64,000 nt of DNA from Candidatus Aminicenantes bacterium. GTDB lineage: Bacteria > Acidobacteriota > Aminicenantia > UBA2199. The DNA lies in the NCBI GenBank assembly GCA_029938635.1, contig JAOZUQ010000005.1:1363-65362 (forward strand). Reading direction: 5' to 3'. Position 1 is the first letter of the stretch; the number at the start of each line of letters is the position of its first letter. Positions 6,234-55,963 of the stretch are shown in pieces. Position numbers and translations under genes: made by a program. Below the pieces are notes generated by a model. The model worked only from the letters and a program-made list of their open reading frames with translations, was not told where the DNA came from and searched no databases.

Positions 6234-6472
6234 TCCGTTCAGATAGAAAAAGAATTATTTAGATATTATATATCACGAATGTTGTAAATTTGACCGGCTG
6301 GATCAGAGAAAATTGATTATCCAGCTACCCGCAATTATTCCAATGCTCATATATAGGAAAAGTTTGATCCCCTCTTTCCTTATCATTGCCTTATCATCAT
6401 GCCTGATAAATGCAATTATAGTAGAAACGATGCCTGAAAAAACCAGCATCGAGATCAGATGGCTTTTAAAGA

Positions 6473-10212: not shown

Positions 10213-10223
10213 TTGAATTCAAC

Positions 10224-26569: not shown

Positions 26570-28654
26570 ATGGAAAATTTTTCAGAGAATGCCTTGAAAA
26601 TTCTACGGGCCAGATATTTCAAAAAAAATGCTGATGGGGAGCTGACAGAGAAAAAACCTTCCGACCTGTTCGAGCGGGTCTCAAAATATATAGCAAAAGC
26701 CGAAAAAAATGAAGATGACAGGAAATTCTGGGAGGATAAATTCTACAATTCCATGATGAACAGGGATTTCATGCCGAATTCTCCAACTCTTACAGGAGCG
26801 GATAGAGGAATGTGTCTCTCCGCCTGCTTTGTACTCCCGATCAAGGATTCACTTGAAAAGATCTTTGAAACAGTAAAAAATGCCGCCCTCGTTCACAAAG
26901 AAGGAGGTGGAACCGGATTTGACTTTTCACTTATAAGGCCTCAGGGTAGTTTTGTTAAAAAAACTCAGGGGATTGCCTCCGGGCCTGTTTCATTCCTTAA
27001 AGTAATAGATGCCGGCACTGAAGCTGTAAAACAGGGCGGGACAAGGCGTGGCGCCAACATGGGAGTTCTGAGAGTAGATCATCCCGATATCAAAGAATTT
27101 ATCACGATGAAAGATGACGGAAAAACAGCCCTGAACTTTAATATTTCCGTTGCAATTACAAATGATTTTATTGAAGCAGTTAAGAATAAAACAACTTATG
27201 ACCTGATCGATCCCAAGGACAATGAGGTCGTAGGGAAAATGTCCGCAACCGAAATAATGGAACTGATAGTGGATTCCGCCTGGAGGACAGGCGATCCGGG
27301 ACTGATATTCATTGATAAAGTGAATGAGTTGAATCCGACAAGAATGCAGGGGCCGATCAGAGCGACAAACCCCTGCGGAGAGCAGCCACTTCATGATTTT
27401 GAATCCTGTAATCTCGGATCCATTAATGTATCAAATTTTTTCTCACCTGATAAAGAGGATATGTTCGATTGGGAACGGTTTACAGAGATGATCCAGATGG
27501 GGATCAGGTTTCTGGATAATGTCATTGATGTTAACAAATACCCATTGAAAGAAATTGATAAAATAGCCAAAAGCAACCGGAGGATCGGACTGGGTATCAT
27601 GGGATTTGCAGATCTTCTTATCAAAAAAGAGCTCAGATATGATTCGGATGAGGCACTCGAATTCGGGAGAAAGATCGCAACTTTCCTAAGAAGTGAAGCG
27701 GAGAATGCATCAAGAGGCCTTGCGAAAGAAAGAGGTAACTTCCCGGGTATTGATCAATCGATATACAAAGGGAAACAGATGAGGAATGCAACAGTTCTTA
27801 CCATTGCCCCCACAGGAACAATCTCAAGGATAGCGGGCTGCTCATCCAGTATAGAGCCAGTATTTGCTTTTAAGATCATATCGAAGATCCTGGATAGTGA
27901 AATAAAGGATTTCCACCCGCTCTATCAGGAATGGGAAGAGAAACACGGAGATGAAGCGGTTCCTGAATATTTCATTTCAGCCTCTGAGATCTCACCTGAT
28001 AATCATATAAAAATGCAGGAAGTATTCCAGCTGAGTGTAGACAGTGCCGTTTCAAAAACAATCAATTTTGCAAACAATGCATCAAGAGAAGATATATCCG
28101 ATGCCTATATTATGGCATTCGGCATGGAAGTGAAGGGGATAACTGTATACAGGGACGGATGCCGTGCAATACAGGTGCTTAATAATATGGATAAAAAAGG
28201 CAATCCTGAGCCTCTCGGGAGGCCGGATTCACTCCCGTCAATGACTCATAAAGTTTCTACGGGACTGGGCAGGCTCTATATTACAATATCACACTTTAAT
28301 CATAAACCTTTTGAGGTTTTCTGTTCTATCGGTAAGAGCGGATATTCTACAATGGCAGATGCAGAAGCGATCGGAAGGCTTACATCACTGGCACTAAGAA
28401 GCGGCATCTCAGCTGAAGCGGTTGTGAGTCAGCTTAAAGGGATCGGTGGATCTGAACCGACCTTCCACAATGGAGCTTTGATCCAGTCCATCCCGGATGC
28501 AATAGCACAGGCTCTGGAAAAACATATTGGAGAGGTTATAACTAACAATCAGGATATGAACTCCATTACATGCCCGATGTGCGGAGCATCATTACCTGAT
28601 GAAAAGTGTCCGACCTGCCCGAATTGTGCATGGACAAAATGCGGCGGAACCTGA
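26570..28654 (+). CDS. nrdJ: Class II (adenosylcobalamin-dependent) ribonucleoside reductase
   Basis: 694 aa. N-terminal ...ILRARYFKK...FMPNSPTLTGA..., C-terminal Cys-rich zinc ribbon CPMCGASLPDEKCPTCPNCAWTKCGG. AGGAGG SD 5 nt before the ATG. Confidence 0.9.
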   Translation: MENFSENALKILRARYFKKNADGELTEKKPSDLFERVSKYIAKAEKNEDDRKFWEDKFYNSMMNRDFMPNSPTLTGADRGMCLSACFVLPIKDSLEKIFETVKNAALVHKEGGGTGFDFSLIRPQGSFVKKTQGIASGPVSFLKVIDAGTEAVKQGGTRRGANMGVLRVDHPDIKEFITMKDDGKTALNFNISVAITNDFIEAVKNKTTYDLIDPKDNEVVGKMSATEIMELIVDSAWRTGDPGLIFIDKVNELNPTRMQGPIRATNPCGEQPLHDFESCNLGSINVSNFFSPDKEDMFDWERFTEMIQMGIRFLDNVIDVNKYPLKEIDKIAKSNRRIGLGIMGFADLLIKKELRYDSDEALEFGRKIATFLRSEAENASRGLAKERGNFPGIDQSIYKGKQMRNATVLTIAPTGTISRIAGCSSSIEPVFAFKIISKILDSEIKDFHPLYQEWEEKHGDEAVPEYFISASEISPDNHIKMQEVFQLSVDSAVSKTINFANNASREDISDAYIMAFGMEVKGITVYRDGCRAIQVLNNMDKKGNPEPLGRPDSLPSMTHKVSTGLGRLYITISHFNHKPFEVFCSIGKSGYSTMADAEAIGRLTSLALRSGISAEAVVSQLKGIGGSEPTFHNGALIQSIPDAIAQALEKHIGEVITNNQDMNSITCPMCGASLPDEKCPTCPNCAWTKCGGT

Positions 28655-28656
28655 TT
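28605..28656 (+). repeat. Direct repeat copy 1 (last 16 codons + stop of nrdJ)
   Basis: AGTGTCCGACCTGCCCGAATTGTGCATGGACAAAATGCGGCGGAACCTGATT is identical to 36211..36262. Confidence 0.9.
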
Positions 28657-28661
28657 TGTTT

Positions 28662-29531
28662 TTAAAGAATCAATTGTCTTGTGGCAGAACCCGGGAAATT
28701 GGGATCAAAGCGAATTAACGACAATTCCGGCCCGTCATGAGATCCGTTGAAAGCCTCAGTTCTTCCGATTTTATCTCTCCACGACCCTGTCAATCTTGCA
28801 GATTCATGTACGTGTCCATGAAGAGTTAAAAGCGGCGATTTCTCCTCAATGAATCTTTTAATTGCAATACTTCCTATATTTACATCTAAAGGGACATGAT
28901 CAATCATTTTTCCATCCAGGGCTGCTCTGTCCAGACTGGTTTTATATGGCGGAGAGTGGAAAAGAAAGATCGACTTGGATAATTTTCGATTTTGCGTTAA
29001 TTCTTCAAGATCATCTGCAATTGTCCGGAATTTCAGGTCGTATTCTCGTACCGGAATTGAGAGCGCACCTTCATCCGGCGCCGTACACCCGGGATCAACA
29101 TACCGTGACACATCATACCTTTCCCAATCTTTCAATCTAAATGGTGAAGGGGGAATAAATGAGTACCCAAAAATAAGAAAAGAGTTCCAATTAATCATCT
29201 TATTATGAGCATAATGCCAAATTCCATCCATGGCTGCATCAAGAATTGTGGCCTCCTCCATTCTTCCATCATCATTCCCTAATATTATAAACACATCAGG
29301 ATATCTGCTTTTTAGTTTCTTTCTTATCCTCTGCAAGGTTTTTACAAGGAAATCATTAACAAAATCTTCATGCTGGAAATCCAGGGCAGTCAACGAAGAA
29401 AGAGGTGATGGTAACAGATCTCCTCCAAAAAAAACCGCAGCAGGAGACTCTGATAAAATCTTCTCAAACAAGATTTCATATTTCCTCACATCGCCATGGA
29501 GATCGGTCACAAAAAAGCAGGGCAAACTCAT
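28662..29531 (-). CDS. Calcineurin-like metallophosphoesterase
   Basis: 289 aa. MPE motifs DLHGD, GGDLLP, ILGNDD, FHSPPY, LHGHVHE. Stop codon is 7 bp from the convergent nrdJ stop. Confidence 0.8.
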   Translation of the reverse strand: MSLPCFFVTDLHGDVRKYEILFEKILSESPAAVFFGGDLLPSPLSSLTALDFQHEDFVNDFLVKTLQRIRKKLKSRYPDVFIILGNDDGRMEEATILDAAMDGIWHYAHNKMINWNSFLIFGYSFIPPSPFRLKDWERYDVSRYVDPGCTAPDEGALSIPVREYDLKFRTIADDLEELTQNRKLSKSIFLFHSPPYKTSLDRAALDGKMIDHVPLDVNIGSIAIKRFIEEKSPLLTLHGHVHESARLTGSWRDKIGRTEAFNGSHDGPELSLIRFDPNFPGSATRQLIL

Positions 29532-29601
29532 TTCGCTGCAAATATTAGAGCTCCTTGTTTAAAAAAAGATTAAAAAATACTCTGATAATCATTTTTTTAT
29601 A

Positions 29602-32600
29602 TCAGCTAACGCTGTTTTTCATTTTAAGTTCTCTTGCCGAATCCGTAACCGCATTTATCTTTACTGCAAAACTATTTTTCTCAGCAATCTCTTTATCTGA
29701 TATCAAATGGATATCAAGCAGTCCCTCTGTTTTGTATCCGGTCCTTTGATAGTTCAATTCAGCAAGTGTAAGACTCCATCCGTCAAGCCATAATAACAGA
29801 TCACTTTTTTGCCTTTTTGTTCCGTCAAAATGAACCAGCAGATCAATATCACTACAAGGCCCGGCTGTTGCATTTTTAGTACTTCCGAAAACATAGATAG
29901 CTTTTACCCCAAAACGATCCGGGTCTAAATTAGCACTGATCTGTTCGGCCATTCTCAATCTCCATTTCCAATAATCATCCGCAACAAAGAATGGGCCTGA
30001 TTTGATGTCATCCTGTTTTTCACTCACCTGATCAGTACCGGATTTCGTTATAACAGCAATTGCCTCCCCCAGGTCTGAGTTCATTAATATCTGCAATGGC
30101 TCTCCATCGCAATTATCAGGAACGTCAATTACTTTAACAACATTTTCCATATCTTTATATTCGGGGACAATATCACCCAATATGTTTTTTGACCTGAGAA
30201 AAAAATCTTCTTTAAATACTATATCTTTGTCATCAGGATAAAGTGGAAGATACCTTATCGAGGCTTCTACAAGATCTTGAAAAAAGTGTGTCCCGAATGA
30301 CAATTCGGGAGTATAATTCCCTTTGGACCTTGCAATTTCAATTAATGCAGCAGTATTATTAATGTCTGAATATGTAACATTAACTCCAAGTTTTATATCA
30401 CCCCTGGAACCCCATCTACCCGGCCCAAGTAATATGAATTGCCTTTTAGGCAGAATATTATTCAGTTTCCCGACTATTCTCCCGATCTTCTTAAGATCTT
30501 CAAGGTTTGATAGTTTTGAATATTCATTCGGATCAACGTAAACAACATGTGTAACATTAGGAATAAATCCATCTGAAATATATTTATTTCCTGTAAAAAT
30601 TATCCTTTCATGAGGAATATTCCGTGGTATTGGAACAGAATGTGTGCTATGGAAGTAACTTTGAGCTCTGCATTGTAAAAGATATAAATTTGTCCCGTCA
30701 TGGGCAAATTCAATATCAACCGGAGTCTTAAGTTTTGTTTTCAACGTATCCATCATCCAGTTCATTTGATTAAGGAACTCGGATCCTTCCAGAAACCCCT
30801 GAAAGTTAACTACCAATTCATCTTCCTTAAATTTAATATTAAAGGCAGAAGCAGGTTTCTGGATCATATCTTCTTTTACAACAGATACCATATTATGAAT
30901 TCCGGGGATTAATGCACCGTGAGATTTTAAAAAATCTTCGATTTCGATCGTTTCAAAAATATTACTTTCAAGATTCAGTACATCAATATTTTTTGGCGAA
31001 TATCTTATAACTTCATCAGGAGTTATATTTACATTTAACCCTGGTTTTTTAGGTGCAATCAGGATCGGATAATCCTCGGCAATCCTGTCTACCGCTCTTG
31101 TTCCCAGTCCGGGGACCAATCTTATAAGCCCGTCATCCCTTTTAATCCTGGGGGACCATCTGAATTCATTACTACTGAATGCAACACCGGCAAAACTCGG
31201 TAAAAAATATTTTCCGATTTTTGTACCTACGACCTCCTGAATAATAATCCCCATTTCTTCATTAAAATCTAATAGTTCACGTTCTGCCCTGTATTGGATA
31301 GGATCAGGCCCGAATATGGATGAATAGACCTCTGCAATTGCATCGGTCAGAGCATTTAATTTCATTTCAGCAGTGCCCTGATTAGCAAGAAATAAACTTT
31401 TATATTTCCCGGAAAAACTGGCTCCGACCCTGTCTTCCAACAAACTTGAACTTCGGACAATAATCGGATTATCACCAAAATATTCAATAACCACTTTTAA
31501 TCCTCTCAGAATTTCAGGAGGAAATTGAGAGTTTTTTAAGATTTGTATAATATTAGGGTATTCCAGATGAATTTCACCTATATCCTTATATTTTTGCTCA
31601 TAGACATTCTCCAGATTATTATAGTGCAAAAAGTCGATTAATCCATCTGAAGTGATATACCATGTTTTTGGAATTTTAATCTTATGGGGAAACTTATCAA
31701 ACCCTGCAGAATTTTTTATAATGCTTGCGGCAAGAAAAAGGCCGGAACTTTTCCCCCCCAGTTTACCGAAACTATTTGAAGGAGACAGGATCTGTTTTAT
31801 AACACTAAAAAAATCCTCCAGATTTATATTATCTTTTGCAATTTTTATAAATTCCATTTGATCTGACAAGATCTTTCTGATAACGGAAGTTTTTATACTT
31901 TTTTCAGTTGCTGGTGACAATTTGACCTTTCCACTATTTAAAAATTTAAACCGTGTCAATGCGTTAATTATGTCAACAAGAGAGGAATTCGGATTTTCCA
32001 GGATAGTAACAAGAAATCTGGATTTCTCCTCATCAATCCAATTTCTGATAAGAGGCATTATATATTCATCAGCAAAATTTTTTGAAGCCAGGTCAAAAAT
32101 ATCATTACTAAATGAAATAATTTGATCCATCGAATCTTTTCTGGATGGTTGATTGATATCTTCAAAAAATACACTATTCTCACTTTTATTCTCAACTTCT
32201 TCATAGGTTTGAATTAATATGTCATTCGCTTCTGTAATGCTGTTTAAAAGGAGGTGATAAAGCATTTTTCTGGATATATATATATACAATTTAAGATTTG
32301 AATCTTTGAGCAGGTCTACGATCACCCGCCACTGAGGGCTTGATTCTAAAGCGATCTTTTCATCTGCTCTCTCCCATTTATTATGAATGCTTTTCAATTT
32401 TGAGTATAGGAAAACATGGCTTAATCTCTCAGCAATTGATTTGATCAATTGTCTCTCTTCCTTTAAAAACAAATTATCGATAGCTTCGTTTATTTTTCCT
32501 TTATAGGAAATAGTTATTTCGCCTGTTTCTTCTCCCTGAATTCTGATTTTTGCAGAAAGACTTTTTGAAGTTTCTTCATAATCTTCAAAACGATATTCCT

Positions 32601-32808
32601 GGCTTTCATAATCAATCTTTGCCTGAGCATTTTTTGGGAATTGCATCCCTTCAGGAATTGTTCTGATCACTGCATAGATAAGTTCATCAAGTGCTAATTC
32701 ACTATTTTCTAAAATCTCCTCGATACGATAGAGACAATTTAATTCCTTTTGCCTTTCCTGTAGAGAATGTAATAAAGTACTCGAATCTTTTTTTTTTGAA
32801 TCATTCAT
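29602..32808 (-). CDS. Multidomain protein: N-terminal helical region + PEP/pyruvate-binding (PPDK_N-like ATP-grasp) domain + C-terminal minimal nucleotidyltransferase (Pol-beta-type) domain
   Basis: 1068 aa. Middle region ...SFGKLGGKSSGL...IVRSSSLLEDRVGASFSGKY...GIIIQEVV... resembles the nucleotide-binding domain of PEP synthase/PPDK. C-terminus ...IYVFGSTKNATAGPCSDIDLLVHFDG... carries the hG[GS]-x(9-13)-DhD NTase signature. 4-nt overlap with the upstream paralog. Confidence 0.75.
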   Translation of the reverse strand: MNDSKKKDSSTLLHSLQERQKELNCLYRIEEILENSELALDELIYAVIRTIPEGMQFPKNAQAKIDYESQEYRFEDYEETSKSLSAKIRIQGEETGEITISYKGKINEAIDNLFLKEERQLIKSIAERLSHVFLYSKLKSIHNKWERADEKIALESSPQWRVIVDLLKDSNLKLYIYISRKMLYHLLLNSITEANDILIQTYEEVENKSENSVFFEDINQPSRKDSMDQIISFSNDIFDLASKNFADEYIMPLIRNWIDEEKSRFLVTILENPNSSLVDIINALTRFKFLNSGKVKLSPATEKSIKTSVIRKILSDQMEFIKIAKDNINLEDFFSVIKQILSPSNSFGKLGGKSSGLFLAASIIKNSAGFDKFPHKIKIPKTWYITSDGLIDFLHYNNLENVYEQKYKDIGEIHLEYPNIIQILKNSQFPPEILRGLKVVIEYFGDNPIIVRSSSLLEDRVGASFSGKYKSLFLANQGTAEMKLNALTDAIAEVYSSIFGPDPIQYRAERELLDFNEEMGIIIQEVVGTKIGKYFLPSFAGVAFSSNEFRWSPRIKRDDGLIRLVPGLGTRAVDRIAEDYPILIAPKKPGLNVNITPDEVIRYSPKNIDVLNLESNIFETIEIEDFLKSHGALIPGIHNMVSVVKEDMIQKPASAFNIKFKEDELVVNFQGFLEGSEFLNQMNWMMDTLKTKLKTPVDIEFAHDGTNLYLLQCRAQSYFHSTHSVPIPRNIPHERIIFTGNKYISDGFIPNVTHVVYVDPNEYSKLSNLEDLKKIGRIVGKLNNILPKRQFILLGPGRWGSRGDIKLGVNVTYSDINNTAALIEIARSKGNYTPELSFGTHFFQDLVEASIRYLPLYPDDKDIVFKEDFFLRSKNILGDIVPEYKDMENVVKVIDVPDNCDGEPLQILMNSDLGEAIAVITKSGTDQVSEKQDDIKSGPFFVADDYWKWRLRMAEQISANLDPDRFGVKAIYVFGSTKNATAGPCSDIDLLVHFDGTKRQKSDLLLWLDGWSLTLAELNYQRTGYKTEGLLDIHLISDKEIAEKNSFAVKINAVTDSARELKMKNSVS

Positions 32809-34553
32809 TTAAAGATCACTCCCTCACTTTTTCTCCCGTCAACTTTAATTTTCATAGGAGATTTTAATTTTATATGGCGGATATATTTCCCTTTCCATTT
32901 TATTTCTTGTTGACCCAACCAGTCCCAGTCAATGGGGATCCGGCTTTTCGTTGAAATTGAAAAATAAAAAATTCCGAGATTTGAAATATTATGGAAAAAA
33001 TGTGACCCTTGGCTCATATCAACAAATACACTTGCCAGAGAAGATTCGATTATCACTTCTGCTCCTGAAATCTCACCCCAGGTCACAGGAATTCCCAGCC
33101 ATGGATCAGATGAACCCCACCTTCCGAATCCGATCAAAGTATAATTTTCGTTTTCATTTACCAGGGTTCTGTTTACCATTGCAATCTCAGAAGCAATTTC
33201 TCTCGTATTTTTCAGATTGAAGGTCTCCGGCATAACATAAACGATATCTCTAATGTTATCTTTCTCACCATTGCCTAAAATGTTGTCTCCTGCAGTTAAA
33301 ACTGTTTCAGGGCTCCAACTCTCTTTTTCTGTATCCACAGGGTTGGAAAATGTCGCCATCGGGCGTACCTGCAACAAACTGAATTTATTCTTATCAGAGA
33401 TACTTTGCCCCAAAGATATGGCAAACTCAATCTCCACATCTGAGTTAAAATGAGATTCACATAGTTTTAAAATATCAATGATCAAATCATTCACAGGCAA
33501 TAATTTACTCTGAAGGATAGGGGCAAAATTTATCAACCTTGCACCCTTGTTTGCCACACCTATATCAAACCTGTCCGATTCATAATTGTAAGTGGAAGCA
33601 ATTTTTGATAATGAATTGTCATATTCCGCATCATTTATTGATAATTGAATTAGATATTCAGTTTCTTTGATCGGATCATAGGTCTTTATTTCACCCATAT
33701 TTACTGCCCAGAATTCTGTTTGAGATTGTTTCAGCAGATCATTAGCACTATTAAAAGGTGGTGGCGCATCGGGATATATCGGGCAATAATCCCATGAATT
33801 TCCTCCATCTACGATTGATTTGCCCAAACCCAAAGCTAAGCTGACCACACCATCTTCGGGTTCCGAATGCCCGGATGTATAAAAATTATAAGATTTAGCA
33901 ACTCCTGATATATTCGGATAGAACCTGTTATGATGTTGTTGTCCTACAACTTCCTGAATAATAACACCCATTTTTTCTTCATTTATATCTTTTCCTGTTG
34001 ATTTCAGATATGTTTTTGCATTAATGAAAAATGTTGATGAATAAATAAATTTTATTGCTTCTACAAGTTTTTTAAATCTTACATCAGGGTCCGGATGATT
34101 GTTCGGGATCATTTTTGTTTCATAAACACCTGCAAGTGGAATATTCAAGCTGTCTTCCAGAAGACTTGAAGATCTTATTGCGAGAGGCAATTTCATTTTT
34201 TCAATCAATCCTCTTATATCTCCCGATAACCTGACAGGTAACTCGGAATTCAAAAAATGATGTGCAATTCGTTCATCACTTTGCTCTGATAATGCAACTT
34301 TATACAGATTGTTCTGCTTCAGGAATTCATCAAAATATTGAGTTGTGATAACAATTGTCCTGGGAATACTAATTTCGAATTTCAGATCTTTTTCTTCATC
34401 TCCATATGAAAGTAATTTATTCCGGATTTTTGCCAATCCACCGGCTTTTCCGCCAAATTGACCTTTTCCGATAAATGTAAAATCATTGGATTCATCATAA
34501 AAATCCCTGTTAAAAGGGTTAATTCCTTCTAAGTGATTATCTGATCCTTCCAT
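32805..34553 (-). CDS. PEP/pyruvate-binding (PPDK_N-like) domain protein, paralog of the central domain of 29602..32808
   Basis: 582 aa. ...GKGQFGGKAGGLAKI...LAIRSSSLLEDS...GVIIQEVVG...GFGRWGSSDP... parallels motifs in the neighbouring 1068-aa protein (GGKSSGL, VRSSSLLED, IIQEVVG, GPGRWGSRGD). No PEP-utilizing His domain or TIM-barrel. Confidence 0.75.
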   Translation of the reverse strand: MEGSDNHLEGINPFNRDFYDESNDFTFIGKGQFGGKAGGLAKIRNKLLSYGDEEKDLKFEISIPRTIVITTQYFDEFLKQNNLYKVALSEQSDERIAHHFLNSELPVRLSGDIRGLIEKMKLPLAIRSSSLLEDSLNIPLAGVYETKMIPNNHPDPDVRFKKLVEAIKFIYSSTFFINAKTYLKSTGKDINEEKMGVIIQEVVGQQHHNRFYPNISGVAKSYNFYTSGHSEPEDGVVSLALGLGKSIVDGGNSWDYCPIYPDAPPPFNSANDLLKQSQTEFWAVNMGEIKTYDPIKETEYLIQLSINDAEYDNSLSKIASTYNYESDRFDIGVANKGARLINFAPILQSKLLPVNDLIIDILKLCESHFNSDVEIEFAISLGQSISDKNKFSLLQVRPMATFSNPVDTEKESWSPETVLTAGDNILGNGEKDNIRDIVYVMPETFNLKNTREIASEIAMVNRTLVNENENYTLIGFGRWGSSDPWLGIPVTWGEISGAEVIIESSLASVFVDMSQGSHFFHNISNLGIFYFSISTKSRIPIDWDWLGQQEIKWKGKYIRHIKLKSPMKIKVDGRKSEGVIFK

Positions 34554-34644
34554 TAAATTAATTTCCCCTCTGCGAAATTTAATATTTTAAAATAATAATT
34601 CAATTATTATGAATTATGCAAAGTTAATGATATTGGAAAGTTTC

Positions 34645-34680
34645 TTTTTTTTCAATAATAGAGGGGGTTTCCCCCCTCCA
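34645..34680 (-). terminator. GC-rich hairpin downstream of gdhA (probable terminator)
   Basis: GAGGGGG-ttt-CCCCCCTC perfect hairpin in AT-rich DNA about 35 nt past the gdhA stop. A run of T precedes it on the plus strand. It is followed by UAUUAUU on the minus-strand transcript. Confidence 0.5.
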
Positions 34681-34712
34681 TATTTAATGTCACAACAAAA
34701 TAATTTATACTT

Positions 34713-36032
34713 TTAAATCCAGCCTCTGTTTTTACAAGCCAGATTTACTCTGTCTATTGCAATAACATAAGCAGCATCCCTCATATACAAATCTCTCTCT
34801 TTAGCCATTTCACTAACGGCAATGAAAGCAGCGGTCATCTTAGAATCCAGTTTCCCGAGAACCTCATCTTTTGACCAGAAATAGTTCATATTGCACTGGA
34901 CCTGTTCAAAATAACTGCAGGTTACTCCGCCGGCATTTGCAAGAAAATCAGGAATCATAAATATTCCCTTCTCTTTTATAACCTGGTCTGCTTCAGGGGT
35001 TGTCGGGCCGTTTGCCCCTTCAGCGATTATTTTTACTCTGGCTCCGATCTTTTTAACTGAATCTTTATTGATCTCATTTTCAAGAGCAGCAGGCATTAAA
35101 ATATCTACATCCTGCTCAATCCATGCATCTCCGGGTAATACTTCATACCCCAGAGTTTCTGCTTTTTCTTTATCAATTCCACCATAATTATCAGTGATAC
35201 CCAACAATTCTTTCAGATTTATTCCGGATTTATTACGGTATGTAAACCCTTTCTGCTCTTTCTGGCTCCAACTGGAAACAGATATAACCTTACCTCCATA
35301 TTGCTCATAAAGTTGAATTGCGTATTGGGAAACATTGCCAAACCCCTGAAAACTGGCAGTCGTATCTTCCGGGCGAATACCTAATTCTTTCAAGGCTTCC
35401 CGGAGAGTAAAGATTACTCCATAACCTGTTGCTTCAGTTCTTCCCAGTGAACCACCCATTCCTACTGGCTTTCCGGTTATAAACCCGGGATATTTCTCTC
35501 CACGAATTGTCTCATATTCATCAAGCATCCACAGCATATGCTGAGCATTCGTCATAACATCAGGAGCTGGAATATCTGTGATCGGTCCAACATTCTTTGC
35601 TAACTGGCGGACCCAACCTCTGCATATTCTTTCCTGCTCATTTTTACTGAGATTATGAGGATCACATATAACTCCGCCCTTTCCTCCACCGAGAGGAATA
35701 TCCACTACTGCGCACTTCCATGTCATCCACATAGATAATGCTCTCACAGTATCAATTGTCTCCTGCGGGTGAAAACGGATACCCCCTTTCCCGGGTCCTC
35801 TTGCATCATTATGTAGAACTCTGAAGCCTCTGAAAACCTTTTTGCTCCCATCATCCATTGTGATAGGGATACTAAAATGAAATTCACGCAAAGGTTCCCT
35901 CAAAAAATCTTTTGTGGCCTGGTCAAGACCTAATATCTCGGCCACTCCGTCAAATTGTTCCTGAGCTGTTTCAAAAGCATTATAGTTTTTGTTTTCCAAA
36001 TCTAGCCTCCCTGAAATTATTTTTTTTATCAC
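34713..36032 (-). CDS. gdhA: NADP-specific glutamate dehydrogenase
   Basis: 439 aa. Glu/Leu/Phe/Val DH signature ...VDIPLGGGKGG..., NAD(P) Rossmann GFGNVSQY. Confidence 0.95.
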   Translation of the reverse strand: MIKKIISGRLDLENKNYNAFETAQEQFDGVAEILGLDQATKDFLREPLREFHFSIPITMDDGSKKVFRGFRVLHNDARGPGKGGIRFHPQETIDTVRALSMWMTWKCAVVDIPLGGGKGGVICDPHNLSKNEQERICRGWVRQLAKNVGPITDIPAPDVMTNAQHMLWMLDEYETIRGEKYPGFITGKPVGMGGSLGRTEATGYGVIFTLREALKELGIRPEDTTASFQGFGNVSQYAIQLYEQYGGKVISVSSWSQKEQKGFTYRNKSGINLKELLGITDNYGGIDKEKAETLGYEVLPGDAWIEQDVDILMPAALENEINKDSVKKIGARVKIIAEGANGPTTPEADQVIKEKGIFMIPDFLANAGGVTCSYFEQVQCNMNYFWSKDEVLGKLDSKMTAAFIAVSEMAKERDLYMRDAAYVIAIDRVNLACKNRGWI

Positions 36033-36210
36033 TCTGATATCATGATCTTATCAGTAAAATATCTTATAATTTGAAGCTAGATTATAGTATGATTTTTTAT
36101 ATTTTTCAACAAAAAAATTAAACGATTAATTTTTTTTTGAACACAAATATTGACAACAATTTCAGTGTGAAAGAGAGAGATATTTAGAAGAGGATTACGA
36201 AATGAAAATG

Positions 36211-36262
36211 AGTGTCCGACCTGCCCGAATTGTGCATGGACAAAATGCGGCGGAACCTGATT
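36211..36262 (+). repeat. Direct repeat copy 2 (orphan fragment of nrdJ 3' end)
   Basis: 52/52 identical to 28605..28656. Not in frame with any start codon, so not a coding duplicate. Sits upstream of gdhA and beside a GC-rich terminator. Confidence 0.9.
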
Positions 36263-36275
36263 CAATCTAATTTAT

Positions 36276-36312
36276 TCTCAAAATAAGAAGGGCGGGGCTG
36301 ATGCCCCGCCCT
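36276..36312 (-). terminator. Rho-independent terminator of 36354..37445 (possibly bidirectional)
   Basis: GGGCGGGGC-tgat-GCCCCGCCC hairpin followed on the minus strand by UUCUUAUUUU. Confidence 0.65.
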
Positions 36313-36353
36313 GTATTTCCTGAAAATCTAAAAATTTTAATTCTTGTTTACTC

Positions 36354-37445
36354 CTATTTATAATTGGTACCTATCGGCCCATCCACAAGAAGCTTTATCT
36401 GATATATAATAGTGTCACCCGGTGTCACTTTCCATTCAATGCCTGTGGTCCAGTCGGATGATCCCACAGGGAGAGCTGGTGAAGGATTCTTAATTATTTC
36501 ATCACTTGAAGTCTTTTTCCACTGATGTTTTACCATTTTCTTAAATACCCATCCGTTCTTCAGAGAAATGTGATATGAATCAGTCCCTTTATCATCACCT
36601 ATTGCTCCCCACATGTTCTTATGAAAACCGCCTATAGCAATCTCAGGCCCGTCGGTGACATTGCAGGCATCAAAATTACTATCATCCCCACAGTGAAGAC
36701 AGGTTACATCCCCAAAGGCCACCCATTTTTCCTCTCTCCCTTTGAACTGGGGTTTACCGAATGGATCGCTTTTAAAATTAAACTTAGATACAACAACCAC
36801 ACTGACAATCTGGTTCGGCTGGCCGTTGGCAGACTGCGGAATATATCCATTTGCTCTTTCATTACCTTCCCATGTGACATTTTCAAGCTCAATATGCCCC
36901 CCCGGGAAATTTCCCTTAATAAGGATCCTTCCTTTCTGGGGTCCGAAAATTTTTCCCTTGACAAACAACTGAGTTCCAGACTGTAATGCACCCAGTGGAA
37001 TCGGCAATATAGATTCAACAACAGGCTTAAACATCCCCGGTTTGGGTTTGAACTGTGGTTTTTTCTTTATTTTCTTAATCACACCGGGATTGATAAGGAA
37101 TTTAGTCTTAATTTCGAATTCATTACTATCCCCTAGACATGTGTTCTCAGCTTTCACCCTTATCACATAGGTCCCTGCTTCAAAATCTGCAGGAATTTTC
37201 CAGTTCTTTTGGGTCACTCCGGAAGCAGTAAGCTGAAGTTTGAAATTAGCCTGATCGACACTCCCCTTGAAAATATTGATCTTATAATCCGTTTCCTGAC
37301 ACCCGTTTGGCGTCCATTTGATTAAATAAGTATTTCCCTTGAACCAGCCAACACTCCCGTCAGGTTTATTAACAGTAATTGCTGCTCCTGATACCTGAAA
37401 AACACCAAAAATCACCAACAATAAAACTAAATAAAACTTTTTCAT
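36354..37445 (-). CDS. Secreted protein with Kre9/KNH-like (Ser/Thr-rich GPI-anchored family) beta-sandwich domain; paralog of 39498..40634
   Basis: The ORF extends to 37529, but the likely start is ATG at 37445 (MKKFYLVLLLVIFGVFQVSGA signal peptide, AAGGAGATGG SD). Domain ITVNKPDGSVGWFKGNTYLIKWTPNG...YKINIFKG...QLTASG...GTYVIRVKAE...GDSNEFEI fits the Kre9_KNH pattern. Confidence 0.7.
   Translation of the reverse strand: MKKFYLVLLLVIFGVFQVSGAAITVNKPDGSVGWFKGNTYLIKWTPNGCQETDYKINIFKGSVDQANFKLQLTASGVTQKNWKIPADFEAGTYVIRVKAENTCLGDSNEFEIKTKFLINPGVIKKIKKKPQFKPKPGMFKPVVESILPIPLGALQSGTQLFVKGKIFGPQKGRILIKGNFPGGHIELENVTWEGNERANGYIPQSANGQPNQIVSVVVVSKFNFKSDPFGKPQFKGREEKWVAFGDVTCLHCGDDSNFDACNVTDGPEIAIGGFHKNMWGAIGDDKGTDSYHISLKNGWVFKKMVKHQWKKTSSDEIIKNPSPALPVGSSDWTTGIEWKVTPGDTIIYQIKLLVDGPIGTNYK
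36725..37382 (-). repeat. ~650-bp near-identical nucleotide block shared with 39916..40569
   Basis: Hand alignment shows >90% nucleotide identity across the N-terminal halves of the two paralogous genes. The spurious 105-aa ORFs at 36704..37021 and 39893..40210 are near-identical for the same reason. Confidence 0.85.
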
Positions 37446-37488
37446 TTTTCCATCTCCTTTTGAATTTATTTGTTCATCTGAATTAACT

Positions 37489-39345
37489 TTAATCCTTTTC
37501 GAGGATCTCAATTTTAAGTTTAATTCCATTCAGAAAAATCTTGCATTTGGATTGATTGTGCTGGAAACTTTCATCCGGTCCGACAAACATTATTCCGTGA
37601 TTGCTGTTCGGGAAGCCCATCCATCCCTGGGCAGCAGTAGTCATATTCGATTTTGGATCAGGTATCAGGCCCATATTAACAATAAAACCATCACTAAAAG
37701 GAGCGTTAACTTTGTAAACCGACACATTGCAATCCACAGGGTAATAGGTTTTATTATACTTAAGCTTTGCGCTCAGGATAATACCTTTCCCCTTGAATTG
37801 TTTAAGATCGAAATATGCATGGGTTCTCCATATATCGCCGTAATAGGTCTTCCCGTGATTAGCCGCATAATTTGAATATCCGGTCCATCCCTGAGAACTC
37901 CCCCCGGCCGCCACACAGCCGCCTACCTGGGACTCCAAGTGAGCCAGATTACCAGCATCTACCGCCCAGGTAGATCTTTTGCAATAATTTCCGAACGAAC
38001 CGTTTATCTCATAAGTTTTTACTTTGGTTCCTATCTGGACCGTGAACATTCCACTTTTGCCTGATGCTTTGCCGTCTGTCCTGGATATTTTTATTACATA
38101 TTTTGCCGGGCCGGTACCTTTGGGAATGAACCAGTTGTATGTTGATGTATCCGGAGGTTTACCTCCCCCTTTGTAAAGCTTTACTACATTTACACCAAGG
38201 ATAGTTTTTATTGTTCTTACGAATGTATTTCCTGAATAATTATAAAGATCTATCTTTATTGTATTTTTCTTTGTAAATTTATTTTTCCATTTAATAAGGT
38301 GGGTTTTACCTTCCTTCCAGAAACTTGATGTTGACGGCTTTAATATTTCTATATTACCATGAATGGGCGTAATTACCATTTCCGGGGTGATCTGAAATTT
38401 TGGCTTGATCATGAATGGGTCCGAATCATCTGTCACCTGATCATCGCTCATGATCCTCAGGCGATATGTCCCGGTCGCATAATTTCCCGGTATCTTCCAG
38501 CTTTTTGACCCGTTGTTGGATCCGGTCAATTGCTCAAGAAAATTTGGCTGGGAAATAACTGAACCTCTATAGATGTTGATCTTAACACCTGCAGATTGCT
38601 GCCCGGTCTTGTCCCATGTTATTAAATTTGTGATCCCTTTTCTCCAGATTGTGCTGGAGTCAGGTTTTAAAATTGTGATCGACGGTTCTTCTTCCGGTAG
38701 TGCATCTTCGATAACAAGTAATCCGCTGTCACCGACACATAAGTTGTCATCGGTCTTAATCCTTATATAATAGTTCCCCGGATCAAAAGTATTCGGGATC
38801 GTCCAACTTTTTGTATTTGTACCTGAAGCTGTCAATTGAAGCTTAAAGTTCGACTGATTGATACTATCTTTAAAAATATTGATCTTATAACTGGTAACCG
38901 AACAATTTGTCGGGACCCATGTAATTGAATGTGTGGAACCTTTTTTCCAGACCGCCCCCGGCCCGGGACTGGTAACTGTAATTGAGGCTGATTGAGGTTT
39001 ATCTGCAATAATAAATAATCCACTATCTCCTACACACAGGTTGTCATCCGTTTTGACCCTTATAATATAATTTCCTGAGTCAAAGGTGCCCGGTATCGTC
39101 CAGCTTTTTGTATTTGTGCCTGAAGCAGTCAGTTGAAGCTTAAAGTTCGGCTGACTGATACTATCTTTAAAAATATTGATCTTATAACTGGTAATCGAAC
39201 AATTTGACGGAGTCCAGGTGATGTTGTGAGTGTCACCTTTGTACCAGGTAACTCCATTCCCGGGAGCTGTAACATTAATACTCTGTGACCAGATCACTCC
39301 GCTAAAAAACATAATTAGTAATAATAATATCCTGAATTTTTTCAT
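37489..39345 (-). CDS. Secreted protein with three tandem Kre9/KNH-like ~90-aa repeats plus a distinct C-terminal domain
   Basis: 618 aa with signal peptide. Repeats NVTAPGNGVTWYKGDTHNITWTPSNCSITSYKINIFKDSISQPNFKLQLTASGTNTKSWTIPGTFDSGNYIIRVKTDDNLCVGDSGLFII (x2 almost identical), then a third, more divergent copy. Confidence 0.75.
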   Translation of the reverse strand: MKKFRILLLLIMFFSGVIWSQSINVTAPGNGVTWYKGDTHNITWTPSNCSITSYKINIFKDSISQPNFKLQLTASGTNTKSWTIPGTFDSGNYIIRVKTDDNLCVGDSGLFIIADKPQSASITVTSPGPGAVWKKGSTHSITWVPTNCSVTSYKINIFKDSINQSNFKLQLTASGTNTKSWTIPNTFDPGNYYIRIKTDDNLCVGDSGLLVIEDALPEEEPSITILKPDSSTIWRKGITNLITWDKTGQQSAGVKINIYRGSVISQPNFLEQLTGSNNGSKSWKIPGNYATGTYRLRIMSDDQVTDDSDPFMIKPKFQITPEMVITPIHGNIEILKPSTSSFWKEGKTHLIKWKNKFTKKNTIKIDLYNYSGNTFVRTIKTILGVNVVKLYKGGGKPPDTSTYNWFIPKGTGPAKYVIKISRTDGKASGKSGMFTVQIGTKVKTYEINGSFGNYCKRSTWAVDAGNLAHLESQVGGCVAAGGSSQGWTGYSNYAANHGKTYYGDIWRTHAYFDLKQFKGKGIILSAKLKYNKTYYPVDCNVSVYKVNAPFSDGFIVNMGLIPDPKSNMTTAAQGWMGFPNSNHGIMFVGPDESFQHNQSKCKIFLNGIKLKIEILEKD

Positions 39346-39419
39346 GTAATTCTCCTATTTATATAGATAAAACTTTTAGTATTAATATCTCAAAAATAAT
39401 TTATCATGTAACTAATTCT

Positions 39420-39453
39420 GAGATAAGAGAAGGCGGGGCATTGAGCCCCGCCC
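39420..39453 (-). terminator. Rho-independent terminator of 39498..40634
   Basis: GGCGGGGC-attga-GCCCCGCC hairpin, same family as the hairpin at 36290-36312. Confidence 0.6.
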
Positions 39454-39497
39454 TGTACTTTATGATTCAACAACCAAATGCATCAAAAATATATATA

Positions 39498-40634
39498 TTA
39501 TTTATAATGAGTGCCGAGGGGTCCTTCGACAATTATTTTAATCCTGTACCGGACATTGTCATTAGGTGTTACTTTCCAGTGAACAATAGCACTCCAGTTC
39601 GGTTGACCAGCTGGAAATGAAGGGGTAGGACCTGACAACACTTCATCCCCTGAACTCTTAGACCACTCAACTTTCTGCATACTTTTCAGGACCCAACCGT
39701 TTTTAAGACTAATTGAGTAGACATCATCTCCCACATCATCACCTATGGCTCCCCATACGTTTGAATGATAACCACAAATCGCATAAGCTGTAGCACATCC
39801 CACAGTAAATTCCTCTCCTGGCCAGATATCACCACTTCCAGATGAAACACCATTACAAACATTACTGTTACCATCATTTCCGCAACTGACACCTACTGCA
39901 TCAGCAGTAAGCACTTTTTCTTCTCTCCCCTTGAACTGGGGATTACCGAATGGATCGCTTTTAAAAGTAAACTTAGATACAACAACCACACTGACAATCT
40001 GGTTCGGCTGACCGTTGGCAGACTGAGGAATAAATCCATTTGCCTTTGAATTAATTTCCCATGTGACATTTTCAAGCTCAATATGCCCCCCCGGGAAATT
40101 ACCCTTAATAAGGATCCTTCCTTTCTGGGGTCCGAAATTTTTTCCCCTGACAAACAACTGAGTCCCAGGTTGTAACGCACCCAGTGGAATCGGCAATATA
40201 GATTCAACAACAGGCTTAAACATCCCCGGTTTGGGTTTGAACTGCGGTTTCTTCTTGAACTTCTTAATCACATCAGGATTGATATAGAATTTGTTTTTTA
40301 TCTCAAACAGTTTGCTATCCCCTAGACATGTATTCTCAGCCTTAACCCTGATCACATACATCCCTACTTCAAAATCTGCAGGGATTTTCCAGTTCTTTTG
40401 GGTCACTCCGGAAGCAGTAAGCTGAAGTTTGAAATTTGCCTGAAGGACACTCCCCTTGAAAATATTGATCTTATAATCAGTTTCCTGACATCCGTTTGGC
40501 GTCCATTTGATTAAATAAGTATTTCCCTTGAACCAGTCAACACTCCCATCCGGTTTGTTGACAGTAATGGATCCAGGAAAGATCAAGCCTGTACAAATCA
40601 AAATAGTAATAAATAAAACTGATAATTTTCTCAT
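39498..40634 (-). CDS. Secreted Kre9/KNH-like domain protein, paralog of 36354..37445
   Basis: 378 aa with signal peptide. N-terminal ~220 aa nearly identical to 36354..37445. C-terminal Cys/Gly-rich region diverges. Confidence 0.75.
   Translation of the reverse strand: MRKLSVLFITILICTGLIFPGSITVNKPDGSVDWFKGNTYLIKWTPNGCQETDYKINIFKGSVLQANFKLQLTASGVTQKNWKIPADFEVGMYVIRVKAENTCLGDSKLFEIKNKFYINPDVIKKFKKKPQFKPKPGMFKPVVESILPIPLGALQPGTQLFVRGKNFGPQKGRILIKGNFPGGHIELENVTWEINSKANGFIPQSANGQPNQIVSVVVVSKFTFKSDPFGNPQFKGREEKVLTADAVGVSCGNDGNSNVCNGVSSGSGDIWPGEEFTVGCATAYAICGYHSNVWGAIGDDVGDDVYSISLKNGWVLKSMQKVEWSKSSGDEVLSGPTPSFPAGQPNWSAIVHWKVTPNDNVRYRIKIIVEGPLGTHYK
39916..40569 (-). repeat. Second copy of the ~650-bp near-identical block (partner of 36725..37382)
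   Basis: See 36725..37382. Confidence 0.85.
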
Positions 40635-40794
40635 ACTCGTCTCCTTACTTATATATAAAACCGGGGGAATAGAAATCTCAAATAAAAATCGCTGCTAATA
40701 AATTAACCTAATAATTGATATGACACAGCTATGGCATATTTTATTGTAAATCAGTGGAAAAACCGGGAAAACAAATTTGGAAGAAAAAGAAAAA

Positions 40795-40827
40795 TATAAA
40801 AAAAAAGGCAGGGATTAACCTGCCTCT
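40795..40827 (-). terminator. Rho-independent terminator of the thioredoxin gene
   Basis: GGCAGG-ttaat-CCCTGCC hairpin followed by U8 on the minus-strand transcript. Confidence 0.75.
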
Positions 40828-40845
40828 AGTATTTGAATACTTGGT

Positions 40846-41202
40846 TTATGCTTCTACTTTCAGTACTGTTTTGATAGCTTCTTCAAAACTTTCCTTTGGA
40901 AGAGCGCCCATTGACATTTGAGGTTTGTCGTCCTTCGGAATGAATAATATTGATGGGATACTTGTGATCTGAAATATCCCTGCAAGTTCGCCCTGGGCCT
41001 CAGTATCAACTTTAAATATATTGATCTTACCGTCAAACTCCTTGGAAAGCTTCTCCAGAACAGGAGCAACCATCTTGCAGGGCTGACACCAGTCTGCATA
41101 AAAATCAATTATTGCAGGAAGTTCCCCTTTGAATTTCCATTCCTTCTCATTTTCAAAATCAAATATTTTTTCAACGAATGTTTCTTTTGTTAAATGTTCC
41201 AT
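40846..41202 (-). CDS. Thioredoxin-family protein (active site WCQPC)
   Basis: 118 aa. ...FYADWCQPCKMVAPVLE... thioredoxin fold with CxxC. Q replaces the usual G of WCGPC. Confidence 0.85.
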   Translation of the reverse strand: MEHLTKETFVEKIFDFENEKEWKFKGELPAIIDFYADWCQPCKMVAPVLEKLSKEFDGKINIFKVDTEAQGELAGIFQITSIPSILFIPKDDKPQMSMGALPKESFEEAIKTVLKVEA

Positions 41203-41281: not shown

Positions 41282-42391
41282 CTAGTAATTCTCCAGACGT
41301 GTCAATGTGGTGCTCAATTCAAGTACTTCCACCGGGCAATCCTTCCATCCACTTTCCCAGCATACAAGTAGTTCGCAGTTCTTCGTAAGCCTTTCGTTTT
41401 TTTTCAGATCGAGACTGTTTAGCGCAAATCCAAGGTTAACAGCTTCCCATTTTTCCTCTTCAGACGACTTGTTTCTTTTCCCTGAGAAACAATACCGGTC
41501 TAACCCGAAAGACTCAACTATAAAGTTCAACTCTTCACAAACCACTCCGAATATAAATATCACTCCCCGTGTATCGATCGGAGCAAATTTAATTCCTCTG
41601 AAATTCAGTGGGTTACCCTTTTCTTTTTCAGATTTTGTAATTGCAGGCTTAATAGTTTCAGGAATTATTTTTTTCTTCTTCTTTTTCTGAACATCCATAG
41701 CCATCAGGTTCTCGATCCCACCACCATCATCCGGAACATAATCAAAACTGGGCTCCGACTCTTCTTTACTCTTCCTGCTCTTCTCCTTATTTTCGATCTC
41801 ATCAATTGTAAGGATATTATCACTTCCGAAATTATCGCTGAATTTATCCGATTCGGATTTTTCAATGCCCATTTCATTTTTTTTAATGGAAACAAGTGTC
41901 TCCTCAAAATTTATCTTTGACTTCTTTTTGCTATCCTTTTTTTTGGTAACCATAATCGTTTTATCAGGAGAAACAATCTCGATAGGCCCTTCATCCATCA
42001 CAATGGTTTTATCAGGAGATGGCGCCGATTTCCGGTCATACTTGGATTTAGCAAGATTAAGTGCATCAGTAAGAGTTCTCCACCTCTGCTCATAATCTTC
42101 TTTTGAATATCTTCCGTTCTTTTCTATTAATGCATATGTAGGAGTTTCTCCGAACTCCTTCTCAATCCTGAGCAGGTCTTTAAGCAGGTCCTTATCTTTG
42201 ACCTCTTCAACAAAAGTCCCGTCTTCAAGTCCTGCTTCCCTCAGGGCATCATGCCATGAGCTGATATAGAAATTTATTGTACTAACAGGGATCATTGTAT
42301 TCTTTATGAAGTCTTTTTTCTTAAGGCTACTGGTTTTAAGGTTGGATGCCACCCTTTTTATCTCTTCTATGATCTGATTTTTATCATACAT
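41282..42391 (-). CDS. Hypothetical protein: two globular domains joined by a Lys/Glu/Ser-rich low-complexity linker
   Basis: 369 aa. Long KK/EE/SD-rich central region. C-terminal ~110 aa carries conserved Cys/Trp (..LLVCWESGWKDCP..). 2-nt spacing to the upstream purA. Confidence 0.55.
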   Translation of the reverse strand: MYDKNQIIEEIKRVASNLKTSSLKKKDFIKNTMIPVSTINFYISSWHDALREAGLEDGTFVEEVKDKDLLKDLLRIEKEFGETPTYALIEKNGRYSKEDYEQRWRTLTDALNLAKSKYDRKSAPSPDKTIVMDEGPIEIVSPDKTIMVTKKKDSKKKSKINFEETLVSIKKNEMGIEKSESDKFSDNFGSDNILTIDEIENKEKSRKSKEESEPSFDYVPDDGGGIENLMAMDVQKKKKKKIIPETIKPAITKSEKEKGNPLNFRGIKFAPIDTRGVIFIFGVVCEELNFIVESFGLDRYCFSGKRNKSSEEEKWEAVNLGFALNSLDLKKNERLTKNCELLVCWESGWKDCPVEVLELSTTLTRLENY

Positions 42392-52506: not shown

Positions 52507-52560
52507 GAAATAACCATCACAATATAAAATAATAAATAAAATGAACTAAATTATCAAATA

Positions 52561-54132: not shown

Positions 54133-54270
54133 CTTTATAATATAGTATAGGCTTACAGGTTATTCAATAATTAACTCCTGGAAAAGGAGAGTGATTATCA
54201 TAGTTGACGAGAATTCATGCTCAGGAGCCTGTATTAAAACTATGAATAAACGGAGCTATTATATTAGAGA

Positions 54271-55839: not shown

Positions 55840-55963
55840 GTTATAAGTATAGTATCAGAGAACAGATTATTCAAGAAATTTACATGACAAAAAACATTAT
55901 CAGCTAATTCAGTCTCCTTTTTAGAACATATCATCTGTGCTATAATTTTTCCGGAGGTATTTT

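Follow-up and report, generated by a model that had tools for sequence, protein, structure and literature searches.

Introduction

Integrase-borne genomic islands and integrative and conjugative elements (ICEs), whose targets are tRNA and tmRNA genes, guaA and other protein-coding genes, are flanked by a direct repeat of the 3′ end of the target gene, and the gene itself is left intact. Here, we describe an arrangement of similar appearance in a window of 64,000 nt, by which is meant the whole analysed stretch of contig JAOZUQ010000005.1 of Candidatus Aminicenantes bacterium (GCA_029938635.1). In this window, a perfect 52-bp direct repeat of the 3′ end of nrdJ, the gene for class II (B12-dependent) ribonucleotide reductase, brackets four genes. 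A preliminary description of this DNA regarded the two copies as attL and attR, the scar of a site-specific integration, and named another duplication or recombination event as a fallback. It is the fallback that holds: no recombinase is found in the scanned open reading frames (ORFs), whole units are repeated, and the left edge of the inserted block is not tied to the repeat. With a probability of about 0.6, the repeat is a leftover and recently re-homogenised relic of the nrdJ end in a hypervariable gap, into which a core gene cluster was relocated, and not an island scar. The feature is most likely a fresh instance of a well-known kind of genome plasticity, namely a tandem segmental-duplication array with concerted evolution.

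The likeness to islands and ICEs lies in several points. Direct repeats flank the insert, one of them ending the target gene, the original gene end and its terminator are displaced to the far side, and relatives have an empty site. Unlike in islands and ICEs, however, no recombinase lies inside the insert or elsewhere among the scanned ORFs, and the cargo is not foreign and appears to be a native core cluster moved within the lineage. In addition, the edges of the insert do not match the repeat in every carrier, and the repeat carries a spacer and a terminator, recurs two to three times together with single paralog genes, and decays or vanishes in relatives.

Tandem segmental duplication arrays with concerted evolution are also comparable. 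At this locus, as in such arrays, a gene-end fragment, a spacer, a terminator, a paralog gene and its upstream region are repeated head to tail, and the same ordered elements continue beyond the short repeat in two related loci, L001 and L012. The locus is fixed while the number of copies changes from one close relative to the next, paralogs resemble each other more within a genome than between genomes, and a stretch of perfect identity abuts diverged sequence. Unlike in known arrays, one unit position is held here by a relocated 7.4-kb metabolic cluster, and the repeated fragment comes from an essential neighbour gene, not from the amplified gene.

Two other systems share some properties with the locus. 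Integron cassette arrays (intI, attI and attC) also consist of mostly single-gene units in one orientation with a recurring short sequence and a fixed anchor site. In contrast to integron cassettes, the recurring sequence is here a fragment of a coding gene, and the units have their own promoter regions and terminators. There is no intI or other Phage_integrase-type match in 30 scanned ORFs of the window, and the 69-nt fragment has no attC-like fold. Silent partial copies, such as pilS for pilE in Neisseria, are promoterless and start-less 3′ copies near an expressed gene that exchange sequences by recombination, as the nrdJ-end copies might do. Unlike the pilin, the NrdJ tail is strongly conserved, with six essential cysteines, and is not diversified; its fragments decay neutrally, and any exchange would be incidental.

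The Repeat and Its Two Copies

Exactly two copies of the 52-mer (AGTGTCCGACCTGCCCGAATTGTGCATGGACAAAATGCGGCGGAACCTGATT) are present in the window, at 28605-28656 and at 36211-36262, on the + strand in both cases and with identity at 52 of 52 positions, just as first reported. No third match is present in the window even if up to three mismatches are allowed, and dinucleotide shuffles did not match the 52-mer (0/100). Copy 1 (28605-28656, + strand) was said to hold the last 16 codons and the stop codon of nrdJ. The gene end and the stop are indeed there, while the codons are 15 full ones (CPTCPNCAWTKCGGT), preceded by two bases of a Lys codon AAG, since the first base of the copy is the second base of that codon, and followed by the stop codon and TT. 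If gaps are permitted, the homology is longer than 52 nt, with 63/66 identical positions between 28591-28656 and 36194-36262 and an insertion of 3 nt in copy 2. Copy 2 as a whole is a non-coding fragment of the nrdJ end at 36194-36262 (+ strand), perfect in its 36211-36262 part and diverged at 36194-36210. Identity between the copies is patchy: the 52/52 stretch directly abuts 17 nt in which three mismatches and the 3-nt indel are found.

The gene to which copy 1 belongs, nrdJ (26570-28654, + strand), encodes a protein of 694 aa with a Cys-rich C-terminal tail. It is recognised by Pfam (Ribonuc_red_lgN, Ribonuc_red_lgC and TSCPD) and by NCBIfam TIGR02504 with 640 bits over a cutoff of 400, and its domains are the all-alpha ribonucleotide reductase domain, the barrel and TSCPD. 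The tail, CPMC-x8-CPTCPNC-x4-C, fits a six-Cys pattern, and four of the six cysteines are encoded by the codons of copy 1. All six cysteines of the C-terminal zinc-finger tail are needed for turnover in a class II enzyme (PMC5704485). In the window, nrdJ is the sole + strand gene amid a long run of - strand genes, with the dcw cluster (mraZ, mraW onward) on its left.

Copy 2 is not a second nrdJ, as had been stated already: no ATG, GTG or TTG is available in the nrdJ frame from the upstream stop to the fragment. An ORF of 22 codons exists in another frame at 36202-36270, and this frame is not conserved among the copies of relatives. Two small-protein readings, in which copy 2 would mimic the redox tail of NrdJ as a separate peptide or the 22-codon ORF at 36202-36270 would be expressed, were considered and rejected, since the nrdJ frame of copy 2 lacks a start codon, a nonsense codon lies in the nrdJ frame of one relic in L001 (L001_C), and open frames vary from copy to copy. 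A small RNA was rejected as well, as no promoter-like site on the + strand precedes copy 2 and the fragment has decayed in the relative L017. The 69-nt fragment shows no unusual DNA fold, shuffled sequences folding as well as it does on both strands (z = -0.57 and -0.26). No Rfam family, tRNA or tmRNA is found across the whole window, and thus the repeat is neither a known RNA element nor an att site of the tRNA type.

Can the repeat be produced by assembly? The window belongs to a genome assembled from a metagenome, and the ends of several related contigs lie at the repeat. An assembler might have linked unrelated regions via a k-mer common to them, or merged two similar sequences so that they became identical. 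However, both types of junction are present in independent assemblies of other genomes: the junction between nrdJ and the metallophosphoesterase gene, the left-most of the four enclosed genes, was found again in L016 (82% nt identity), and that of the gdhA upstream region, nrdJ-end fragment, terminator and secreted gene in a third genome, L017 (87% nt identity). An independent Logan contig, L013, equals window 28627-32810 at 100% and ends exactly 30 nt inside the repeat. This end at k-1 (k = 31) is what a true branch of the assembly graph is expected to give, and the breaks of L001, L013 and L017 within the repeat are likewise expected of a real one. An artefact is therefore unlikely as the source of the repeat, and we give it hardly any credence. 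Metagenome assemblies of this clade are fragmented by the repeat at a predictable place.

The Gap between nrdJ and Thioredoxin in Relatives

For comparison, about ten related loci were available, mostly on short contigs that end at the repeat, and the closest genomes are metagenome-assembled genomes of Candidatus Aminicenantes. A scan of metagenome contigs for exact matches to the well-kept 3′ portion of the nrdJ end yielded only four loci, of which L009 and L012 are relevant; the other two (L010 and L011) have no similarity to the window. Exact look-ups with the NrdJ and GdhA sequences of the window, and with the near-identical GdhA P0158, retrieved no entry. The synteny from the dcw cluster to nrdJ is conserved in relatives and is picked up again at a thioredoxin gene (around 40846 in the window). 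The interval between them, window 28657-40845, is variable, and relatives hold there zero, one, two or more genes for secreted immunoglobulin-like (Ig-like) proteins. In L003 and L004, only terminators lie between nrdJ and the thioredoxin gene, that is, the site is empty. L023 has one paralog of the secreted family, L009 a 526-aa protein with Ig repeats, and L007 several paralogs and a membrane protein, while in L022 the order is nrdJ, terminator, a gene for a 230-aa Ig protein, paralog, duplicated terminator and paralog. Two or more paralogs occupy the gap in L001, L012, L007, L022 and the window. Comparison of these loci shows the nrdJ-thioredoxin gap, as judged from gene content, to be a hypervariable and lineage-restricted locus of secreted Ig-like proteins in Aminicenantes.

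It had been proposed that relatives with an empty site would show nrdJ directly followed by the sequence beyond 36262, and this is what they show; the interval that they lack is, however, the whole 12.2 kb of 28657-40845 and not merely 7.6 kb. The sequence beyond 36262 comprises a spacer (TCAATCTAATTTATTCTCAAAATAAGAA) and a bidirectional terminator hairpin at 36289-36312, which together make up 36263-36312 and were found by the terminator scan (fold z = -3.2). The same sequence lies directly 3′ of nrdJ in L001, L002, L003, L007, L009, L012 and L022. Copy 2 and its terminator thus represent the native 3′ flank of nrdJ. The stem of the terminator is the same in the window (36289-36312) and in L001 (2357-2379), and its 4-nt loop is inverted (TGAT versus ATCA), which looks like a small inversion of the hairpin loop.

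Repetition of the nrdJ end together with what follows it is seen best in two relatives. L001, whose NrdJ is 96% identical in aa sequence to that of the window, has three nrdJ ends: that of the gene itself, a diverged copy at about 3660-3711, and another at 5040-5122, where the contig stops. Each of the first two is followed by the spacer, the terminator and one paralog gene, and the third is truncated after 13 nt of the spacer. In the metagenome contig L012, nrdJ and a terminator are followed by a paralog, a copy with a terminator, a further paralog and a degenerate copy, after which comes the block of metallophosphoesterase and PPDK_N genes, which is 91% identical in nt sequence to that of the window; the copies besides the gene lie at 6375-6421 and about 7740-7800. 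Compared with the nrdJ end of their own genome, relic copies are identical at 64/73, 45/57, 50/53 and 51/68 positions. Frames differ among the copies, and L001_C has TGG changed to TGA in the nrdJ frame; from these differing open frames and the nonsense codon, the nrdJ-end copies are taken as non-coding relics. All of them retain the same 3′ portion best, ACAAAATGC.GCGG.ACCTGAT. Only the two copies of the window and the relic of L001 share a synonymous AAG codon, a hint that relics and the nrdJ gene have exchanged sequence. In L007, paralog arrays exist without any copy of the nrdJ end.

Position of the Block Relative to the Repeat

If the repeat were the scar of the block's arrival, the block should keep its position relative to the nrdJ-end copies, and it does not. 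In the window and in L016, the left edge of the block directly follows the nrdJ stop codon. The convergent stops of nrdJ and the metallophosphoesterase gene are separated by a tight junction of 7 nt (28655-28661) with ATT microhomology at the join, the spacer and terminator of nrdJ being absent from between the two genes; the junction in L016 is the same. In L017 and L018, the block starts after an nrdJ-end copy, the spacer, the full terminator and 65 nt, the sequence from the spacer onward amounting to 116 nt in L017. In L012, two paralog units come first, and a degenerate copy and 29 nt then precede the block. Alignment of the junctions shows that a loss of about 110 nt turns the L017 form into that of the window and L016, the ends being joined at the ATT microhomology; because of this microhomology, the repeat extends 2 nt beyond the stop codon. 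Since the junction is common to the window and L016 at just 82% nt identity, it must be old. If transcription of nrdJ reads through this terminator-less junction (window 28652-28664; L016 910-925), antisense RNA would be made over the metallophosphoesterase gene.

L017 and the window stay collinear on the right side of the block, from the upstream region of gdhA via the nrdJ-end fragment and terminator as far as a paralog. The copy there has decayed, and only 22/23 nt at the 3′ end of the nrdJ end survive. The preliminary description held that relatives with the same segment and without any repeat would speak against its reading, and L017 comes near to such a case, a remnant of the right copy being still recognisable. 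Between L017 and the window, the flanks of copy 2 are 84-92% identical and 36101-36238 is only about 60% identical. From the position of the block, which differs by genome, and the decay of the right copy in L017, it is concluded that the repeat is not a scar of block insertion. From the old arrangement, the decayed copy of L017 and the 52/52 stretch beside a diverged 5′ part, we infer a recent homogenisation, by gene conversion or unequal crossover.

Another possibility is an insertion of the Campbell type. A circle carrying the block and a copy of the nrdJ end, derived from elsewhere in the array or from a related strain, may have recombined with the chromosomal nrdJ end. Such an event would yield nrdJ end, block and nrdJ end in this order, and push the original end and terminator distally, with no need for a dedicated recombinase. 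The topology in the window is indeed that of a single crossover, with block DNA after copy 1 and the native spacer and terminator after copy 2. The block is placed differently relative to paralog units in L012 and the window, no integrase was found among the scanned ORFs, and a homology of 52-66 nt suffices for RecA-dependent exchange. However, the sharing of the junction with L016 makes the insertion old, and the perfect identity would still need a later homogenisation. Extra sequence between copy and block, the terminator and 65 nt in L017 and 29 nt in L012, is not left by a simple crossover in the repeat, and the differing gene orders can also be explained as different deletions from one longer ancestral array. 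A Campbell-type insertion is therefore conceivable and on balance rather improbable.

The Four-Gene Block and Its Native Locus

The genes of the block are all on the - strand. From left to right, they encode a metallophosphoesterase of 289 aa (28662-29531; Pfam Metallophos), whose homologues of about 60% identity are widespread, a 1068-aa protein with PPDK_N and nucleotidyltransferase domains (29602-32808), a 582-aa PPDK_N protein (32805-34553) and the glutamate dehydrogenase GdhA (34713-36032), the last three being identified by Pfam and NCBIfam scans. The same four genes in the same order are found beside a divergent sigma-54 activator gene and a small ORF in L014, a 751-kb contig of another genome, and in L024 (CALODR010000001.1), which belongs to the same assembly (GCA_942492175.1) as L003; these clusters were reached via homologues of the metallophosphoesterase and GdhA. 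The homology of these native loci to the window is confined to 28702-35998, with the four genes and none of their flanks, and no nrdJ-end sequence is present at the native locus of either L024 or L014. More distant Aminicenantes (L019 and L020) keep gdhA, the PPDK_N gene and the PPDK_N-nucleotidyltransferase gene with the activator. The metallophosphoesterase gene is convergent with the PPDK_N-nucleotidyltransferase gene in L019 (10001-14095) and L020 (82-4162) and co-oriented with it in the window, L014 and L024, which implies inversion of this single gene within the cluster.

The block lies at another locus in a genome (L024) whose nrdJ site is empty (L003), and it is thus considered to be relocated and not acquired from outside. 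The preliminary description supposed the enclosed genes to be horizontally acquired or rearranged and suggested a comparison of GC content and codon usage with the flanks. The word rearranged is well chosen; acquisition finds no support, for the comparison reveals no foreign composition. GC content at the third codon position is 0.30-0.36 and codon-usage distance 0.15-0.37 in the block, inside the range of the flanking genes or close to it, and collections of plasmids and phages gave no match to the block beyond generic gdh similarity. A defence island was considered and discarded, PADLOC having given marginal sub-domain matches only (E from 1e-7 to 3e-6). To judge from gene order and composition, these four genes form a conserved core cluster of Aminicenantes that has moved within the lineage.

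In its native setting, the cluster lies beside the divergent sigma-54 activator gene (L024 8209-10000; L014 1724-3520; L020 7276-8785). The region upstream of gdhA in the window (36033-36193, - strand) is unrelated to that of the native gdhA. It contains a sigma-70-like promoter, TTGAAA-17-TATAAT, at 36109-36081, and its 36106-36141 part bears a weak resemblance to the sequence 5′ of a secreted-paralog gene in L001 (U_C). In a search for sigma-54 promoters, the native clusters of L024 and L014 had only weak GG-N10-GC candidates with two mismatches in their upstream regions, and the window and L017 had no candidate. Relocation would have given the cluster a new upstream region with a near-consensus promoter of the sigma-70 type, away from the sigma-54 activator, and its regulation may have changed. 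Genes of the recombinase type occur in three relatives at a distance of 3-9 kb from the native gdhA/PPDK_N locus (L024 20345-21287; L020/L021 about 10200-10950; L014 19462-20442), and their families are PF10136 SpecificRecomb, a Phage_integrase-family protein and a Y1_Tnp transposase.

Is the nrdJ End a Recombination Site?

The absence of an integrase between the copies, already pointed out from the sequence, is corroborated by Pfam, NCBIfam and PADLOC scans of the enclosed genes. The Pfam scan covered 30 ORFs, which are all genes from mraW to the HNH_repeat gene next to thioredoxin, and hence the whole nrdJ-thioredoxin interval, together with ORFs from either end of the window. Among these 30 ORFs, the scan detected neither an integrase nor a transposase nor any other recombinase, about 25 other long ORFs (mostly in the dcw cluster, at 49-55 kb and at 60-64 kb) being left unscanned; the NCBIfam and PADLOC scans were also without a recombinase.

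How can one nevertheless imagine a site-specific mechanism? The nrdJ end might be the attachment site of a recombinase that has been lost or acts in trans, so that the 7.6-kb segment and the paralog units would each have been integrated there. Direct repeats do lie at unit boundaries in the window, L001 and L012, the site is empty in some relatives, the order and number of units vary by genome, and the best-kept part of all copies is the same 3′ portion, ACAAAATGC.GCGG.ACCTGAT. Against this, no integrase, transposase or integron integrase is present in the scanned ORFs of the variable interval, its neighbours and the related loci. The repeated module runs past the nrdJ end through the spacer and terminator, as expected of unit duplication. 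Copies decay or are absent while the unit stays, as in the copy-free paralog arrays of L007, and in L017 and L012 the edges of the block are off the repeat. A core cluster of native composition forms the cargo, and the site has neither a fold nor an obvious inverted-repeat architecture. Integration at an attachment site is quite improbable on these grounds. Even further from what we would expect is a bolder version, in which the nrdJ-end copies are working sites of an undescribed cassette system whose recombinase, encoded elsewhere, docks at the 3′ end of an essential gene. If this were true, such a system would shuffle cassettes of secreted proteins, and occasionally a whole metabolic operon, through the nrdJ-thioredoxin gap.

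Secreted Ig-Like Genes

The genes between copy 2 and thioredoxin are all on the - strand. Next to the terminator lies the secreted Ig-like paralog P391 (36354-37445), whose ORF extends to 37529 and whose likely start is Met29 at 37445. It is followed by a gene for a related 618-aa secreted protein with repeated Ig-like domains of the Kre9_KNH type (37489-39345), and, after a second hairpin of the nrdJ type (39432-39452), by the paralog P378 (39498-40634). At this second hairpin, a remnant of the spacer is present and an nrdJ-end fragment is absent, and L022 has the same terminator-only duplicate. P378 has 69% aa identity to P391 by BLASTP and 91% nt identity over 654 nt. Synteny with relatives resumes at the thioredoxin gene (40846-41202, - strand), the right-hand limit of the variable interval of 12.2 kb.

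Among 5.8 billion proteins, just 33 are homologues of the paralog family, and all recovered contexts are the nrdJ-thioredoxin gap. Three all-beta Ig-like domains are predicted for its fold (predicted local distance difference test, pLDDT, 82), and a fold search with a paralog returned generic Ig, FN3 and MG-domain matches only. The possibility that P391 and P378, with 391 and 378 aa, are divergent integrases was rejected from their signal peptides and this all-beta fold. By alignment, the paralogs are 72% identical in aa sequence within the window and 72% within L012, while identity between genomes ranges from 35 to 73%, and the pair of the window has at most 53% aa identity to paralogs of other genomes. 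Paralogs that are closer within a genome than between genomes point to concerted evolution at the locus. A 369-aa protein with HNH_repeat (homing endonuclease associated repeat) is encoded at 41282-42391, adjoining the thioredoxin gene, and its position is kept in L003, L007, L009 and L023.

A Possible Course of Events

How, then, might the present arrangement have come about? Its anatomy suggests that segmental, tandem duplication enlarged the array. The duplicated unit would have begun within the 3′ end of nrdJ and carried the spacer and terminator along, and partial nrdJ ends would thereby have been scattered through the array of secreted genes. Comparison of the carriers indicates that the core cluster was relocated into the array in a common ancestor of the window, L012, L016 and L017, where the block probably landed in one array unit. 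We suggest that it replaced the coding region of a paralog, leaving a 3′ remnant and the paralog's upstream region. In the lineage of the window and L016, a deletion of about 110 nt may then have taken out the terminator between nrdJ and the block. Copy 2 and its terminator would be the nrdJ-end module preceding the next paralog gene, not a target duplication produced by arrival of the block. The perfect 52-nt identity would finally be due to recent homogenisation of the RecA type between the two copies.

Several points weigh against this course. The order of events is a reconstruction, drawn from few loci that are mostly broken at the repeat. Gene conversion is read from the patchy pattern of identity and may have run in either direction. 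A repeat at every unit boundary would be equally predicted by a cassette model with a recombination site, whose recombinase could lie outside the window or in the unscanned long ORFs. The likeness between the gdhA upstream region and L001 concerns 36 AT-rich nt, its score is reached by 2/300 shuffles, and other relatives are not significant; the paralog 3′ remnant to the left of the L017 block is also marginal, at 1/500 shuffles against one reference and not significant against four.

The current understanding of mobile elements and of ribonucleotide reductase is unchanged by these findings. They do, however, give a caution for island calling, as perfect direct copies of the 3′ end of a gene on both sides of several kb look like the scar of an island and need not be one.

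Other Features of the Window

Apart from the nrdJ locus, the window contains another pair of tandem paralogs on the - strand, with 523 and 522 aa, at 52525-54170 and 54235-55877, which are about 68% identical in nt sequence. Near its left end, three small - strand genes lie at 2158-3359 and encode, in this order, a Fis-type HTH_8 protein (115 aa), a LytTR protein (113 aa) and another HTH_8 protein (111 aa). Window positions 2239-2398 and 3105-3264 are about 72% identical to each other.

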